IMG/VR virus record: IMGVR_UViG_2565956726_000013
Coordinates: 1 to 30,505 of that record
Strand: one strand, 5' to 3'
DNA from: a virus
Lineage: Duplodnaviria; Heunggongvirae; Uroviricota; Caudoviricetes
Length of the DNA stretch: 30,505 nt
In this document: in pieces, positions 4,495 through 11,053 of the stretch
Layout: each line of letters starts with the position of its first letter
How positions within the stretch are numbered: the stretch's first letter is position 1
Position numbers and translations under genes: made by a program
Notes under the pieces: model-generated
Database searches by the model: none
Told to the model about the DNA's origin: nothing
The model's input: the letters and a program-made list of their open reading frames with translations, nothing else

Positions 4495-6717
4495 TTGGCT
4501 GTTCAATTCGCTTATCCGTGGAACGTCCCACGGTCGGCAATCTCCAGCCCATACCTTACTTATGAGCAACAGCATCGCCGCGACCGTATGTTCGCGGCTT
4601 TGCTGCATGCAAAAAAGGTGCTTTCTCTCCAGCCCGACAGCGTGCGGTTAGATGTTTATCGCACTGCTGCGGTGCTGGAGCAAAATCAGGGTAGTCAACG
4701 AGCCAATGCATTTTTAATCAGCTTCTGCAAAAAGGCATTGCCGCGTCTTGAACTGGTCGCAAAAAAATACGAATGCGCTGGTATCAACAGCAAGGTATCA
4801 ACCGCTGTTTTTGGAAGTCATTTTGATACTCAGCAAATGCAATATCTGTCGTCACGCATGGTTAATATGGTCGCCAGATATAACCGTCTCCCGGACATGT
4901 CGCGCGCTGATGTTGACCTGTTGGCCGCTGATATTGCTAATTTCATTCGTGGTGAACTTGCCAACATTAATGACCACGGATTCGGCGAGCTTAAAACGCT
5001 GTACACCTGGTATATTCGTGCTGGCTTTATTTCCCTCCAATTCAACGTTATCCCACCACATTGGGAGCGGGTTGAAAAAAAATATGTCGGTGCGGATGAA
5101 ATCGCACCGGCTATCGCCAAAATGTTTAACGATGGGTGGTGGCGCGGTCGTTTGCGCCGTGTTGCAGCTACGTGGCGCGAACACCTGCAAATTGCAGTCG
5201 GCAACGTCAGTAAGAAAAAAAACACTTACGCGAGTAAAAACTGCGTGACTGACTGGCGTGAACAAAAGCGCCGCACTCGTGAATTTCTCAAAGGTCTGGA
5301 TCTCGAAGACGAAGACGGCAACCGTATCAGCCTGATTGAAAAATATGATGGCTCAGTTGCTAACCCTGCGATTCGCCGCTGTGAGCTCATGACCCGCATT
5401 CGTGGGTTTGAAAACATCTGTAATGAGCTCGGTTATGTCGGTGAGTTTTACACTCTAACCGCGCCGTCAAAATATCACGCCACGACTAAAGCCGGTTACC
5501 GTAACAGCAAATGGAGCGGTGCCAGCCCGGCTGACACGCAAAACTATCTAACCGGTATCTGGGCGCGTATCCGTGCCAAACTACATCGGGAAGATGTCCG
5601 TATTTTCGGTATTCGTGTCGCCGAGCCCCATCACGACGGCACTCCACACTGGCACATGCTGATGTTCATGCTGCCGGAAGATGTTGAATATGTTCGCTCC
5701 ATCGTCCGTAAATACGCATGGAAAGAAGACCGCCACGAACTGAAAAGCGATAAATCCAAAAAAGCACGTTTCCACGCCGAGTCCATTGACCCGGAGAAAG
5801 GCAGCGCAACCGGCTATGTTGCTAAATACATTTCAAAAAATATCGACGGTTATGCTCTCGATGGTGAAACCGATGATGAAAGCGGTGAGCTGCTGAAAGA
5901 GACAGCCCCCGCCGTTTCAGCATGGGCTGCGCGCTGGCACATCCGTCAGTTTCAGTTTATTGGTGGTGCGCCGGTGACGGTTTACCGTGAGTTGCGTCGC
6001 CTCGCTGATACCGAAACCGCGCACGGTCTGAGCGTTGAGTTTGCCGCCGTCCATGATGCCGCCGACGCTGGTGACTGGGCTGGTTATGTTAATGCTCAGG
6101 GTGGGCCGTTTGTCCGTCGCGATGATTTACAGGTGCGCACACTGTATGAACCGCGTACCGAGCTTAATCAGTACGGTGAGGAAACGGTATGTATTAAGGG
6201 GGTCTACGATTCCTCCATAGGTGCAGGAAGCCCGATTTTAACCCGGCTCACTCAGTGGAAGATTGTTCCGAAGCGTGCTGTTGATTTGGCCGTTGACCTT
6301 CAGGACGGCAAAGCCGTCCCTCGGAGTTCTGTCAATAACTGTACGGGAAGCGAAAGCGATCCACCGATACTGGATTTAACAAAACCACTGAGTCGGCGTG
6401 AAAGACGAGAATTGACCAACCGACTCAGGAAGCAAAAGCCAGCAGCACGGCGAAAATTCATCCACGGAACGGATGAGCAAAACGCAGCTATAGCTAAAAC
6501 TATCGACGAGATACATCTGACAACCGGCATTAATATCAGCCGGGGCGAAGCCCTGCACCTGATGGCCGGTGGTAAAAGTTGTTTTGATGGGAAATGGCTA
6601 CGCGGAACGGCCAAAGGAGAAATATTTTCCGCAGCACCATCGCATGAGGCTAAAGCTCGGAAAATCCTTAATCGTGTTGCGGCGATGGCTGAAGCATCAA
6701 AACCAAGACATGAGTAA
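4495..6717 (+). CDS. A: Replication initiation endonuclease, rolling-circle initiator (P2 gpA / 186 RepA family)
   Basis: 740 aa; N-terminus MAVQFAYPWNVPR parallels P2 A (MAVKASGRF...); conserved HUH-type motifs EPHHDGTPHWHMLMF and GYVAKYISKNIDGY (active-site tyrosine region). Apparent TTG start at 4495 with a G-rich RBS. Confidence 0.9.
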   Translation: MAVQFAYPWNVPRSAISSPYLTYEQQHRRDRMFAALLHAKKVLSLQPDSVRLDVYRTAAVLEQNQGSQRANAFLISFCKKALPRLELVAKKYECAGINSKVSTAVFGSHFDTQQMQYLSSRMVNMVARYNRLPDMSRADVDLLAADIANFIRGELANINDHGFGELKTLYTWYIRAGFISLQFNVIPPHWERVEKKYVGADEIAPAIAKMFNDGWWRGRLRRVAATWREHLQIAVGNVSKKKNTYASKNCVTDWREQKRRTREFLKGLDLEDEDGNRISLIEKYDGSVANPAIRRCELMTRIRGFENICNELGYVGEFYTLTAPSKYHATTKAGYRNSKWSGASPADTQNYLTGIWARIRAKLHREDVRIFGIRVAEPHHDGTPHWHMLMFMLPEDVEYVRSIVRKYAWKEDRHELKSDKSKKARFHAESIDPEKGSATGYVAKYISKNIDGYALDGETDDESGELLKETAPAVSAWAARWHIRQFQFIGGAPVTVYRELRRLADTETAHGLSVEFAAVHDAADAGDWAGYVNAQGGPFVRRDDLQVRTLYEPRTELNQYGEETVCIKGVYDSSIGAGSPILTRLTQWKIVPKRAVDLAVDLQDGKAVPRSSVNNCTGSESDPPILDLTKPLSRRERRELTNRLRKQKPAARRKFIHGTDEQNAAIAKTIDEIHLTTGINISRGEALHLMAGGKSCFDGKWLRGTAKGEIFSAAPSHEAKARKILNRVAAMAEASKPRHE

Positions 6718-6791
6718 TTCATATCCATATCATGCACATACAGCAATCGCTCTATTCATTTTTTTTCTTCCCATCTTTTGCCAATACGTGC

Positions 6792-6811
6792 TACTGTATA
6801 AATATACAGTA
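6792..6811. promoter_or_regulatory. LexA operator (SOS box) overlapping a promoter
   Basis: TACTGTATAAATATACAGTA: perfect CTGT-N8-ACAG palindrome with AT-rich spacer; possible -35 TTGCCA upstream; RBS GGGAGGG and ATG 6831 follow. Confidence 0.75.
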
Positions 6812-6830
6812 ACCCTATGGGAGGGATTTC

Positions 6831-7013
6831 ATGGTTGGCGAACATTTCAGCCGAACGCAGCAAAAGTGGGCTTGTGTGCAATTTATTGCCGAGGTATCTC
6901 TGATTGCAAACTGCAAGCCATCAGACTTAAAGCTCGCGCTCACTCTCATTGCAGACCTAGCAAACAGCGAAAATAACGAAACCGAAGATGATAATTTTTA
7001 TAAGGCTGATTAG
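6831..7013 (+). CDS. SOS-regulated small protein, Tum-like antirepressor N-terminal part (putative)
   Basis: 60-aa ORF directly downstream of the LexA box with a strong RBS; ends at TAG 7011-7013, in the same frame as and 3 nt before the DinI-like ORF. Confidence 0.5.
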   Translation: MVGEHFSRTQQKWACVQFIAEVSLIANCKPSDLKLALTLIADLANSENNETEDDNFYKAD

Positions 7014-7016
7014 ATT

Positions 7017-7250
7017 ATGAGAATCAATATCACGTTGGATAAAGAGCAAAAAATTAGTCAGACAACGTTGGATGCACTTGAGGCTGAGCTGTACCGCAAT
7101 CTTCAACCTATTTACCCAAAGACTGCTATCCGCATTCGTAAGGGCTCAGCTAATGGCGTTGAGCTAAGCGGTTTGAAACTGGACGAAGATAAAAAACGAG
7201 TGATGGAAATCATGCAGCAGGTATGGGAGGACGATAGCTGGCTGCATTAA
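7017..7250 (+). CDS. DinI-family protein (DinI-like C-terminal part of a Tum-type module)
   Basis: 77 aa; MRINITLDK...LDALEAELYRNLQ...DKKRVMEIMQQVWEDDSW aligns by eye with E. coli DinI (MRIEVTIAK...IDALAGELSRRIQ...DKQRISEILQETWESADDW). Confidence 0.75.
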   Translation: MRINITLDKEQKISQTTLDALEAELYRNLQPIYPKTAIRIRKGSANGVELSGLKLDEDKKRVMEIMQQVWEDDSWLH

Positions 7251-7253
7251 CAA

Positions 7254-7325
7254 ACGCCGTCGGTGCTGAATCTTGCTTTCAGTGCTGACGGGGTTGAACC
7301 ACTGGCTCCGCGAGACGTTAGTTCT
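7254..7325 (+). repeat. Intergenic ~70-bp repeat, copy 1 (hairpin-containing)
   Basis: AACGCCGTCGGTGCTGAATCTTGCTTTCAGTGCTGACGGGGTTGAAC...GCGAGACGTTAG; roughly 80 percent identical by eye to the copy at 7657-7728; directly follows a stop codon. Confidence 0.55.
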
Positions 7326-7445: not shown

Positions 7446-7655
7446 ATGCATCGACTACCGGGCGAAATTCCGCAGCACAAAACTAAAAGCATAAAACTGA
7501 TGGCTATCGTTCATCGCTTGCAGACGATAATGGTCAATGAGAATCTGACGCCAGCAGAATTAGTCGGGTGTGCAGAAGTGGTCAGAGATAACTACGGCAA
7601 GCTGGACGATATCAGCAGACCGACACATTACGCACCGCCACCACATCGACCATAG
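7446..7655 (+). CDS. Hypothetical protein
   Basis: 69-aa ORF with RBS GAGGG 7 nt upstream of ATG; flanked by the two intergenic repeat copies. Confidence 0.35.
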   Translation: MHRLPGEIPQHKTKSIKLMAIVHRLQTIMVNENLTPAELVGCAEVVRDNYGKLDDISRPTHYAPPPHRP

Positions 7656-7656
7656 A

Positions 7657-7728
7657 TAACGCCGCCGGAGCTGAAACTCGCTTTCAGGTCTGGCGGGGTT
7701 GAACAACGAGCTACGCGAGGCGTTAGCT
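7657..7728 (+). repeat. Intergenic ~70-bp repeat, copy 2
   Basis: AACGCCGCCGGAGCTGAAACTCGCTTTCAGGTCTGGCGGGGTTGAAC...GCGAGGCGTTAG; terminal AACGCC/GGCGTT inverted complement; directly follows a stop codon. Confidence 0.55.
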
Positions 7729-7788
7729 GGTCATAGCGTCGCAAATGCTTTAGCCGTCTGCTGGTTAAATAATTCGAGGTTTTTGGAC

Positions 7789-7983
7789 ATGCAAAATCCC
7801 CTTTCATCGAAAAAAGACCCGTTTGCCGATTGGGCAAAGAATCTGACTTTAATGGCTTTAAATAACGACCTGAGCTCTCGCGAGGTGGAAAGCTACACCG
7901 CAAAAATGGTCGGGCAGGCCAGTAAAGATGAGCTTTCAGTCGTTATCAAACACCTATTAAATCACATCAGAATGCGCAAATAA
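7789..7983 (+). CDS. Hypothetical protein
   Basis: Listed ORF starts at a TTG inside repeat copy 2; ATG at 7789 with GAGG 9 nt upstream is the more plausible start (64 aa). No motif recognised. Confidence 0.35.
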   Translation: MQNPLSSKKDPFADWAKNLTLMALNNDLSSREVESYTAKMVGQASKDELSVVIKHLLNHIRMRK

Positions 7984-8371: not shown

Positions 8372-8435
8372 TCGGTGTCAATGAGTAGAAGATGAAAAAA
8401 TAATAACCAAAGGTTACTAAATCAAGGATGTGCCG

Positions 8436-9254
8436 ATGAAAGTTAGCTATGACGTTGTCATCAAAAGTGGTGATCAAGAAGTTGATATGGAGTATGGCCT
8501 TGATACCCTCTCTGGAACGGCTGAGGTGACATGCATACTAGCAGAGGCAATACTCAGAAAAAAAATTATTAAGCGCCGCACTCATGTTAACCCTGCGCGA
8601 GCGGTTCTCAAACAAAGCTTTAAAAGTTCTTATGGTCAAAACTTCGACTTGATTGTTAATGAGCCGGAATTAGCTGCCGAATTAAAAAAAATGACCCGTT
8701 CTGTGTTCTCGGAAGTCATGGGGTATTTTATTTCTGAATCTCTATATCTGGAAACTAAGGAGCTATCTCCAAAAGCTGCAGGAATTATTGAGGAGCTTGA
8801 GGAAATTGAAGATGAACTTATTGATCGTATCAGACAACCTTTGGTAAGGATGCATAGGATAAATCTTCAAAAAAACTTTGATGTTGAACTTAACTATAAA
8901 AAACCTGCTGGCAAACAAAGAATAGCAAAGTTAGACACAATGACTGCTACAAACTTGACACAATCAAAAATAATGCCCGGTCAAGTTAATATTAACGCAG
9001 TTATTACTCGATTTAATGCGAGAACTGGAAATGGTAGGTTAGTTATCGAAGGTGAAGATGATACAGTAGCCTTTGGTTTTTACATGCCTTTAAAGGCTAT
9101 ACCCGCCGCTCAAAAAAGATTGGTCTCATTAAATTTACACAATAATAATGGCAGGCAAGATAACTACACATATCTAAAACTTACTGTTAGTAAAGTTGTA
9201 GTAAAAAGTGGTGATGTGGTGAAATATCTAATCCGTATGGTTGAAACTGTATGA
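8436..9254 (+). CDS. Cargo protein A of a two-gene cassette (unknown function, soluble)
   Basis: ATG 8436 with RBS AAGGA 7 nt upstream (listed ORF starts at GTG 8430); 272 aa; AT-rich unlike the phage backbone; no Walker A or other motif recognised; stop overlaps the start of the next ORF. Confidence 0.7.
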   Translation: MKVSYDVVIKSGDQEVDMEYGLDTLSGTAEVTCILAEAILRKKIIKRRTHVNPARAVLKQSFKSSYGQNFDLIVNEPELAAELKKMTRSVFSEVMGYFISESLYLETKELSPKAAGIIEELEEIEDELIDRIRQPLVRMHRINLQKNFDVELNYKKPAGKQRIAKLDTMTATNLTQSKIMPGQVNINAVITRFNARTGNGRLVIEGEDDTVAFGFYMPLKAIPAAQKRLVSLNLHNNNGRQDNYTYLKLTVSKVVVKSGDVVKYLIRMVETV

Positions 9255-9976
9255 GAAAGGTGTTGCTGTCTTCGGCTGGCGTGATTGTAGCTGTGTGCGC
9301 CTTGTATTACTTCAACTTCGGAGTAAACGGACATTTATCCAGCAAGACTGATGTTTGGGCGCAGTTTGGTGATTATTTGGGTGGTGTCGTCAACCCTATA
9401 CTTTCATTTATTACAATTTACCTCCTTATAAATTCAATAAAACTTCAAAGGGAGGCTAATTCCAGCCTGATCGATGAAGTAAAAAGGCAAGAATCTTTAG
9501 AAGAGTATAAAAAATTTGAAGTGAGATTTTTCCATTTGGTTGAATGTCAGGATTCTAACTTTGAAAGGTTTTGTGTTCAAGTTGGTGATGTTGATGGACA
9601 AACTGACGGGGTGGTCGAAGAATTTACAAGTGGTGCAGCCGTAACTTATCTTGAAGATAATATTGTAATTTTAGTTAAAGCCAAGGTAAAAAAAGAGGTA
9701 ATAACAACGTGGTTAAGTGAAGTGGATGCTAATGATTGCATTTTTTCAGTGGTGCGTCGCTTTTATTTGATTGTGAAGTTGATAGATAATTGCGGGGTTG
9801 AACGGGAAGATTATTATGAAACATTAGTTAACTTAACTGACATAAAAATAATATCTTTAGTTGCAATGGCTTGTACATACTACGAGTGGGATATCGTAAA
9901 GTATATCCATGACAGTAAAATACTTGAACGAGATGGAGTTAAAGAGTTTGTTTCGCAAATATCCACTCACGATTGA
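9251..9976 (+). CDS. Cargo protein B of a two-gene cassette (membrane protein with two N-terminal TM helices, unknown function)
   Basis: ATG 9251 overlaps the upstream TGA (ATGA coupling); 241 aa; hydrophobic segments VLLSSAGVIVAVCALYYFNF and GGVVNPILSFITIYLLINSI, then a roughly 175-aa soluble domain; AT-rich. Confidence 0.7.
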   Translation: MRKVLLSSAGVIVAVCALYYFNFGVNGHLSSKTDVWAQFGDYLGGVVNPILSFITIYLLINSIKLQREANSSLIDEVKRQESLEEYKKFEVRFFHLVECQDSNFERFCVQVGDVDGQTDGVVEEFTSGAAVTYLEDNIVILVKAKVKKEVITTWLSEVDANDCIFSVVRRFYLIVKLIDNCGVEREDYYETLVNLTDIKIISLVAMACTYYEWDIVKYIHDSKILERDGVKEFVSQISTHD

Positions 9977-10006: not shown

Positions 10007-11053
10007 TTATTCCGGGTTATCGAGGGTGTACTCTTTGAACCTGATGACCTCCATGCCGAGCCAGTCGTTTACCTCCCTGAACCTGTCCTGTAGCGGCGAC
10101 AGCTCATTGCGCACAAATACCTTTGCCACCTTCTCAACGTCACCGAGTGAACCGATATTCTCGGGCTTGCCGCCCATGAGCTGGAACGGCACGCGGTGCG
10201 CGTCCATCAGGTCGGCGGCGCTGGCTTTCTTAATGTTGAAAAAGTCATCCTTTGTGGCGACCTCGCTCAGTGGCACGATTTTGATGCCGTCCGGTTTTCC
10301 GCCGGGGGCGTAGAAAAACAGGTTCTTAAAGTTGCCGAGTCCCTTCGAGTTACGCATCGCCTCGCGCAGCGATTCGACGTCGGTCGCACTTTGCGCCGGG
10401 TCAGTCACATACATGATGTAGCCTGCGTGCGCGCCGTTCTGATAATACTTGCGGCGGAACAGCGTCGCGGATTCATTCAGCCAAGCGGAATTAAGCGCGC
10501 TGAGATATTCCGGCAAACCGTAAATCTCCTGATTAATGTCGGGCTCCAGCAGGTGAAACACGGTATCAGGCGCGAACTCGTGCGGCTGGGTGAAGTTTTC
10601 CACAAACCAGAAAATCGAATCGTCGACTCCGCGTCGGGTGTATTTGGCTGGCGAGGCCAGCAGTTTGATTAACTGGCCGGTGACGCTGTGGCGCTGCTCA
10701 AGAAAGGCGTTACCGAACACCAGATAATCGAGCGCAAAGCGGCTGAAATCCTGACGGGATAACAACGGGTGCGGAATGTAGGTGCTCGCGAGCACGTTAC
10801 GCTTAACATAAATTGGCGAGCTGTGATGCACGGCAGAGCGCAGGCTCTTTGCCAGCCCTGAGAAGCTGACCGGCGGCTCGTACCATTTGCCGTTACTGAT
10901 GCATTCGACGTAATCCAGAATGTCGCGCTTATCGAGTACCGGCACCGGCTCGCCGAAGGTGAACGCTGTCGTTTTTGGCGGTGCGCTGGCGGTCAGTTGT
11001 TGTGGTTTGCTGGCCTTTTGTGCGTTGGCTTTACGGGATTTTTGTTTACCCAT
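10007..11053 (-). CDS. Q: Portal protein (P2 gpQ family)
   Basis: 348 aa; size, position directly upstream of the large terminase on the same strand, and overall similarity to P2 Q as recalled. Confidence 0.9.
   Translation of the reverse strand: MGKQKSRKANAQKASKPQQLTASAPPKTTAFTFGEPVPVLDKRDILDYVECISNGKWYEPPVSFSGLAKSLRSAVHHSSPIYVKRNVLASTYIPHPLLSRQDFSRFALDYLVFGNAFLEQRHSVTGQLIKLLASPAKYTRRGVDDSIFWFVENFTQPHEFAPDTVFHLLEPDINQEIYGLPEYLSALNSAWLNESATLFRRKYYQNGAHAGYIMYVTDPAQSATDVESLREAMRNSKGLGNFKNLFFYAPGGKPDGIKIVPLSEVATKDDFFNIKKASAADLMDAHRVPFQLMGGKPENIGSLGDVEKVAKVFVRNELSPLQDRFREVNDWLGMEVIRFKEYTLDNPE

Follow-up and report, generated by a model that had tools for sequence, protein, structure and literature searches.

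The stretch of DNA analysed here (the window, 30,505 nucleotides in full) appears from its gene content to be a near-complete 186/P2-like prophage. Upstream of the replication gene A are an integrase, a 186-type CI, an Apl analogue and CII, and downstream of the operon described below the ORF listing gives long ORFs of sizes and order fitting P2-type late genes. Gene A encodes a 740-aa P2/186-type replication protein and ends at position 6717. Immediately downstream of it, a LexA operator overlaps a promoter and is followed on the + strand by tumA (6831-7013), encoding a 60-aa predicted antirepressor, tumB (7017-7250), encoding a 77-aa DinI-family protein, and a strong hairpin. An initial annotation of the window had reported an SOS box at 6794-6809 and the two ORFs at these positions, and on re-reading the sequence all of its coordinates were found to be right.

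The sequence CTGTATAAATATACAG (6794-6809) is the sole CTGT-N8-ACAG retrieved by a pattern search of the whole window, in which 0.29 chance occurrences of this loose pattern alone would be expected. The encompassing 20-mer, TACTGTATAAATATACAGTA (6792-6811, unstranded), agrees with the LexA consensus TACTGTATATATATACAGTA in all but one of its positions (19 of 20); no LexA 20-mer match with three or fewer mismatches arose in 100 shuffles, and no second LexA box was found in the window. In phage 186, the annotated LexA site lies at the corresponding position. The two phages are near-identical in promoter and operator, and when the region upstream of tumA was aligned to the 186 promoter p95, the -35, the -10 and the LexA site were almost base-for-base conserved. 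The -35 hexamer, TTCCCA (6768-6773, +), was assigned by homology to the annotated p95 -35 (TTCACA), and the -10 hexamer, TACTGT (6792-6797, +), is identical to the annotated p95 -10, with an 18-nt spacer between the two. Hexamers of the p95 type are weak, and a generic promoter scanner called no promoter at this site, which was assigned by alignment to 186 p95. The -10 falls inside the LexA box, in agreement with the initial annotation, which had the SOS box overlapping a promoter just downstream of gene A.

The tumA gene is preceded by a Shine-Dalgarno sequence, GGGAGGG (6819-6825, +), read from the sequence 5 nt before the ATG. Its product is 98% identical to TumA of phage PSP3. TumA had no Pfam or NCBIfam match, PHROGs lists the family under "unknown function", and a profile search of the PDB returned nothing meaningful. 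Structure prediction gave a two-helix hairpin (pLDDT 72), for which Foldseek found no match among viral structures at E <= 0.001, this fold being too simple to inform. At the level of sequence, the family is well populated, comprising 208 protein clusters (90% identity) that are nearly all 60-61 aa in length and that span Escherichia, Salmonella, Klebsiella, Citrobacter, Cronobacter, Enterobacter, Kosakonia and Yokenella, among others. No DinI domain was found in any of the 208 clusters. Twenty-seven loci of the family were compared in detail, of which 25 came from the genomes of different species and the others were PSP3 and the window; together they cover about 15 genera. In all 27, a CTGT-N8-ACAG box lies 19-25 nt before the tumA start codon and the gene stops after 59-62 codons. 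The median dN/dS of tumA is 0.06 (codons 1-47, 166 pairs), and its alternative frames are either interrupted by stops or without constraint. Strong purifying selection thus acts on tumA.

The second ORF had been called a DinI-family gene, which Pfam confirmed: TumB matches DinI (PF06183) at E = 7e-24, with 84.4 bits against a gathering cut-off of 24.2, over profile positions 2-63 of 63. It is annotated as TumB in PSP3, and it aligns over its full length with E. coli DinI (PDB 1GHH, E = 5e-9). TumB scores below the cut-off of the NCBIfam equivalog for chromosomal DinI (52 versus 111 bits) and, by this measure, is therefore a phage paralogue rather than the host gene. The sole Shine-Dalgarno-like element for tumB is AAGG, 11 nt upstream.

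Between tumA and the ATG of tumB at 7017 lie the tumA stop, TAG (7011-7013, +), and a 3-nt spacer, ATT (7014-7016, +). The two genes share a reading frame, and the stop-start junction is compatible with translational coupling. For this arrangement the initial annotation had offered three options, namely a Tum-type gene split by a nonsense codon, a readthrough arrangement, or two naturally separate products. Under the first, the locus would be a pseudogene, with an assembly error or a recent nonsense mutation inactivating a fused tum of the 186 type. Such an origin would account for two ORFs in frame with only TAG-ATT between them, and the fused 146-aa form is indeed common, being found in 77 of the 80 best 186-type viral loci. 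Checking other assemblies for TAG or a sense codon, as had been proposed, gave the opposite picture: a scan for the junction that left the seven bases between GCTGA and ATG free matched 59 independent viral contigs, all 59 with TAG and none with a sense codon. PSP3 and six other phages likewise carry the TAG. Moreover, tumA has a uniform length in about 15 genera and evolves under strong purifying selection, tumB retains an ATG of its own, and the relationship of TumA to the N-terminus of 186 Tum is too remote for a recently mutated copy. Conservation of the stop, the family and the selection data exclude a private nonsense mutation and an assembly error, and we give a pseudogene next to no credence. 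Because the fused form is itself so common, the fused and split architectures are both established in nature.

Under the second option, ribosomes would pass the amber codon, either at low frequency or in amber-suppressor hosts, and the resulting 139-aa fusion, equivalent to 186 Tum, would have a function of its own in addition to the two single proteins. In its favor, the gap between tumA and the DinI gene is 3 nt and in frame at seven of the nine family loci where a DinI gene follows tumA, whole 186 Tum is colinear through the stop by tblastn, and 186 itself makes a functional fused protein. Against it, tumA ends in TAG, TAA or TGA across the 27 loci, one of the seven 3-nt gaps follows TAA, and the other two gaps, of 2 nt and 17 nt, place the DinI gene out of frame. 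The base after TAG varies across the 59 contigs (A in 51, G in 6, T in 2), so there is no conserved readthrough context. In the remaining 18 of the 27 loci, phmmer searches of all ORFs detected no DinI within 1.5 kb of tumA, and unrelated sequence lies downstream instead; DinI is therefore an optional passenger of the antirepressor module. Programmed readthrough is characterized by a conserved stop and context and by an obligatory in-frame downstream ORF without a start, and these loci display neither. Since tumB has its own ATG, translational coupling is the simpler account of the short stop-start distance. The same evidence that speaks against a broken gene argues against an obligatory readthrough design, and we consider functional readthrough very improbable. 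Only slight odds can be given to a few ribosomes, or an amber-suppressing host, producing the 139-aa TumA-TumB fusion at the TAG-NNN-ATG conserved in the PSP3 clade and so recreating 186 Tum; if they did, two genes would give three products, and the fusion would help set the induction threshold. Thus, it is the third option that stood, while the nonsense-split gene and readthrough fell to the conserved stop of the viral contigs, the variable stop and frame of the wider family, and the frequent absence of DinI. tumA and tumB are two naturally separate genes, and TumA is an autonomous LexA-controlled module after which DinI is optional.

In phage 186, tum is one gene of 146 aa, expressed from the LexA-repressed p95 promoter and carrying nested in-frame starts. 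One of these, an internal GTG, yields a protein of DinI size that is annotated as modulating SOS induction. The 186 literature, as cited in PMC3121763 and PMC7708051, describes tum as a LexA-controlled antirepressor (Lamont 1989; Brumby 1996; Shearwin 1998), with p95 repressed by LexA and Tum binding CI to inactivate it reversibly. To Lemire, Figueroa-Bossi and Bossi (PLoS Genet 2011, PMC3121763), Tum looks like a fusion of an antirepressor with DinI. The initial annotation had described 186 Tum as a single SOS-induced protein with a DinI-like C-terminus, and correctly so: the last 76 of its 146 aa are DinI-like, and Tum residues 71-145 align with TumB at 47% identity (E = 7e-28). A linker of ~24 aa joins the two parts of the 186 protein into one polypeptide, whereas the window has two genes; no single polypeptide of ~146 aa with both parts is encoded there, the conserved stop separating them.

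The relationship of TumA to the N-terminal part of Tum is more distant. BLASTP detected no similarity between the two. A profile comparison by hhalign (35 TumA-family proteins versus 26 relatives of the Tum N-terminus) aligned TumA residues 16-48 with Tum residues 14-46 over 33 columns, with a probability of 83% and E = 1e-5. The motif shared by the two profiles is V-x-x-I-A ... C ... A-L-x-L-I-A-[DE]-[LI]-A. An alignment of the conceptual fusion to 186 Tum had been suggested; tblastn with whole 186 Tum as the query gave a single colinear HSP (query 14-145) that ran through the TAG in PSP3-type phages. On the profile alignment and this single HSP, TumA plus TumB can be described as colinear with 186 Tum, with an N-terminal homology that is remote.

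A 901-nt query around the locus has 93% DNA identity to PSP3, 93-94% to the Salmonella phages SI22, SW9, PSP3 and SEN1, and 83-91% to three coliphage and Klebsiella phage records. In PSP3 (GenBank AY135486; Eganvirus PsP3), tumA is annotated as "similar to 5' end 186 tum; UV induction of prophage" and tumB as "similar to dinI and 3' end of 186 tum". PSP3 shares with the window the position after gene A, the LexA box, a 60-aa TumA, TAG-ATT-ATG, a 77-aa DinI-like TumB and the long type of CI. It differs by ~7% at the DNA level, in a CI that is only 73% identical and diverges mostly in the first helix-turn-helix (HTH) domain, and in the genes downstream of the operon. Lemire et al. (2011, PMC3121763) described the tum genes of PSP3 and Fels-2 as split by a stop codon and the upstream gene of PSP3 as an antirepressor. 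As that source presents it where PSP3 is treated, this activity is a personal communication relayed through two papers, the direct evidence being unpublished. A literature search combining "TumA" and "antirepressor" found no paper. The arrangement is thus already known, annotated in PSP3 and published as the split tum of PSP3 and Fels-2, and is not a new anomaly; current understanding is for this reason unchanged.

Other SOS-linked operons show how far the components can vary. Fels-2 has tum split by a stop codon, as PSP3 does, and in its genome (NC_010463, 25404-25628) only the DinI half matches 186 Tum by tblastn. Fels-2 was absent from the TumA matches. Neither 186 Tum nor TumA matched its upstream half, so Fels-2 would draw on a third type of antirepressor sequence for its split tum. 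[quoted passage not shown] 2011, PMC3121763).

The predicted target of TumA is the 281-aa immunity repressor of the 186/PSP3 type encoded by cI (1595-2440, - strand), a choice based on its domains and on its co-occurrence with TumA. This CI contains two Phage_CI_repr HTH domains and a Phage_CI_C domain, and no Peptidase S24 (autocleavage) domain was found in it. Residues 100-274 are colinear with the whole 186 CI structure (PDB 2FJR, E = 4e-21). 186 likewise has a 186-type CI as the target of Tum, and the window CI differs from it by an additional N-terminal HTH domain. These features fit prophage induction by an antirepressor and not by repressor autocleavage; the prediction to that effect in the initial annotation is supported by the missing S24 domain. 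Ten phage records encode TumA, and precisely these ten have a full-length match to the long CI (67-92% identity), while in other phage records the CI matches, among the matches listed, reach at most 39% identity and are mostly in two pieces. Among TumA-bearing viral contigs that extend far enough upstream, the long CI is present in 32 of 32, full length in 30 and cut by the end of the locus in two. TumA therefore co-occurs strictly with the long 186-type CI.

This co-occurrence also bears on whether the 60-aa protein is an antirepressor at all. It might instead have another SOS-linked role, with induction depending on a different factor. Neither PHROGs, Pfam nor NCBIfam assigns TumA a function, its similarity to 186 Tum is weak, and the direct evidence from PSP3 is, in the published account cited above, unpublished. 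On the other side, TumA has the position, the LexA control and the colinearity of the N-terminal part of 186 Tum, and it is found with one CI type. That CI lacks an autocleavage domain, so SOS induction would require an antirepressor, and no other LexA box was found in the window. We therefore regard a different role for TumA as unlikely, though less so than readthrough.

Several observations concern the repressor itself. The HTH domain of the window CI is tandemly duplicated (residues 9-75 and 96-163, 31 of 61 identical), and it is HTH2 together with the C-terminal domain that is colinear with all of 186 CI. Viral contigs with TumA supplied 26 distinct CIs, in which HTH1 varies greatly (36-100% identity, 14 of 67 columns invariant) and HTH2 is conserved (43 of 68 columns invariant); TumA identity across the same contigs is 75-100%, with a median of 98%. 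This pattern suggests that HTH1 sets immunity specificity and that a conserved TumA may recognize a conserved CI core, in which case cross-induction of heteroimmune prophages would be allowed. The PSP3 CI has been described as having a longer C-terminal domain (Nilsson and Haggard-Ljungquist 2011). The Pfam result points to an extra N-terminal domain instead.

With the locus anatomy, homology, conservation, selection and CI co-occurrence documented above, we consider it highly likely that a PSP3-like, 186-group P2-like prophage (Eganvirus) has here its operon for SOS induction, encoding a TumA antirepressor and a separate TumB. From homology and the literature we infer that LexA binds here, that TumA interacts with CI and what TumB does. 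In the lysogen, host LexA would bind the operator overlapping the p95-type -10 and keep the operon silent. Upon DNA damage, activated RecA would promote self-cleavage of LexA and the operon would be transcribed. TumA and TumB would then be made as two proteins from one mRNA, TumB starting at its own ATG 3 nt past the tumA stop, probably by termination-reinitiation or coupling at TAG-ATT-ATG. TumA, a small helical protein, is predicted to bind the non-cleavable CI and block its binding to the operators, leading to lytic growth. TumB would be expected to act on RecA filaments in the manner of DinI and to tune the SOS signal.

The induction route proposed for this prophage is accordingly that of 186, a LexA-controlled antirepressor acting on a non-cleavable CI, rather than lambda-style cleavage of the repressor. 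The tumA/tumB module was matched in 81 of 5426 E. coli genomes, and among the matches listed RefSeq (PGAP) labels tumA a "hypothetical protein" in module-carrying E. coli genomes, an annotation that could now be improved. Recognition of the module should also help to predict induction and cross-induction where prophages share a host.

Directly after tumB is the strong hairpin (7253-7295, +), with a 14-bp core at 7257-7291 and a predicted fold of -34.9 kcal/mol (z = -2.6). It is followed by GGTTGAAC and has no U-run. Relatives keep the hairpin with at least three different stem sequences, and in 186 the canonical partial terminator t95a lies at its position. The hairpin is possibly a partial terminator or a 3' stabiliser. 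An Rfam scan of the window found no family. Two ORFs follow the hairpin on the + strand, at 7446-7655 (69 aa, PHROG 11386) and 7699-7983 (94 aa, PHROG 2454), both of unknown function; by position and length the first corresponds to PSP3 orf37 (gp37). By analogy with orf97 in 186, both may belong to the SOS transcript.

Elsewhere in the window, the gene at the Apl/Cox position (2554-2925, +) encodes a 123-aa product for which Pfam gave no domain and PHROGs only a weak Cox-like match (E = 8e-5), which agrees with a published remark that the Apl analogue of PSP3 is a singleton. A DUF2511 ORF of 112 aa (1247-1585, -) with a signal-peptide-like N-terminus lies between int and cI and is likely a lysogenic-conversion (moron) gene. 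Two overlapping ORFs at 8430-9254 (274 aa) and 9251-9976 (241 aa), both on the + strand, have a GC content of 36-38%, compared with 53-56% in the flanking phage genes. Neither had a Pfam or NCBIfam match or a significant PADLOC match, the only signal being a marginal PADLOC match of the 241-aa ORF to ZorB/MotB (E = 0.002), and they belong to PHROGs 13337 and 8999, of unknown function. The pair sits between the SOS operon and a 348-aa ORF (10007-11053, -), which we take to be the portal gene by P2/186 gene order. Its position is presumably that of the tin/old accessory-gene hotspot of P2, and the pair is therefore a candidate for anti-phage defence or for another moron pair.
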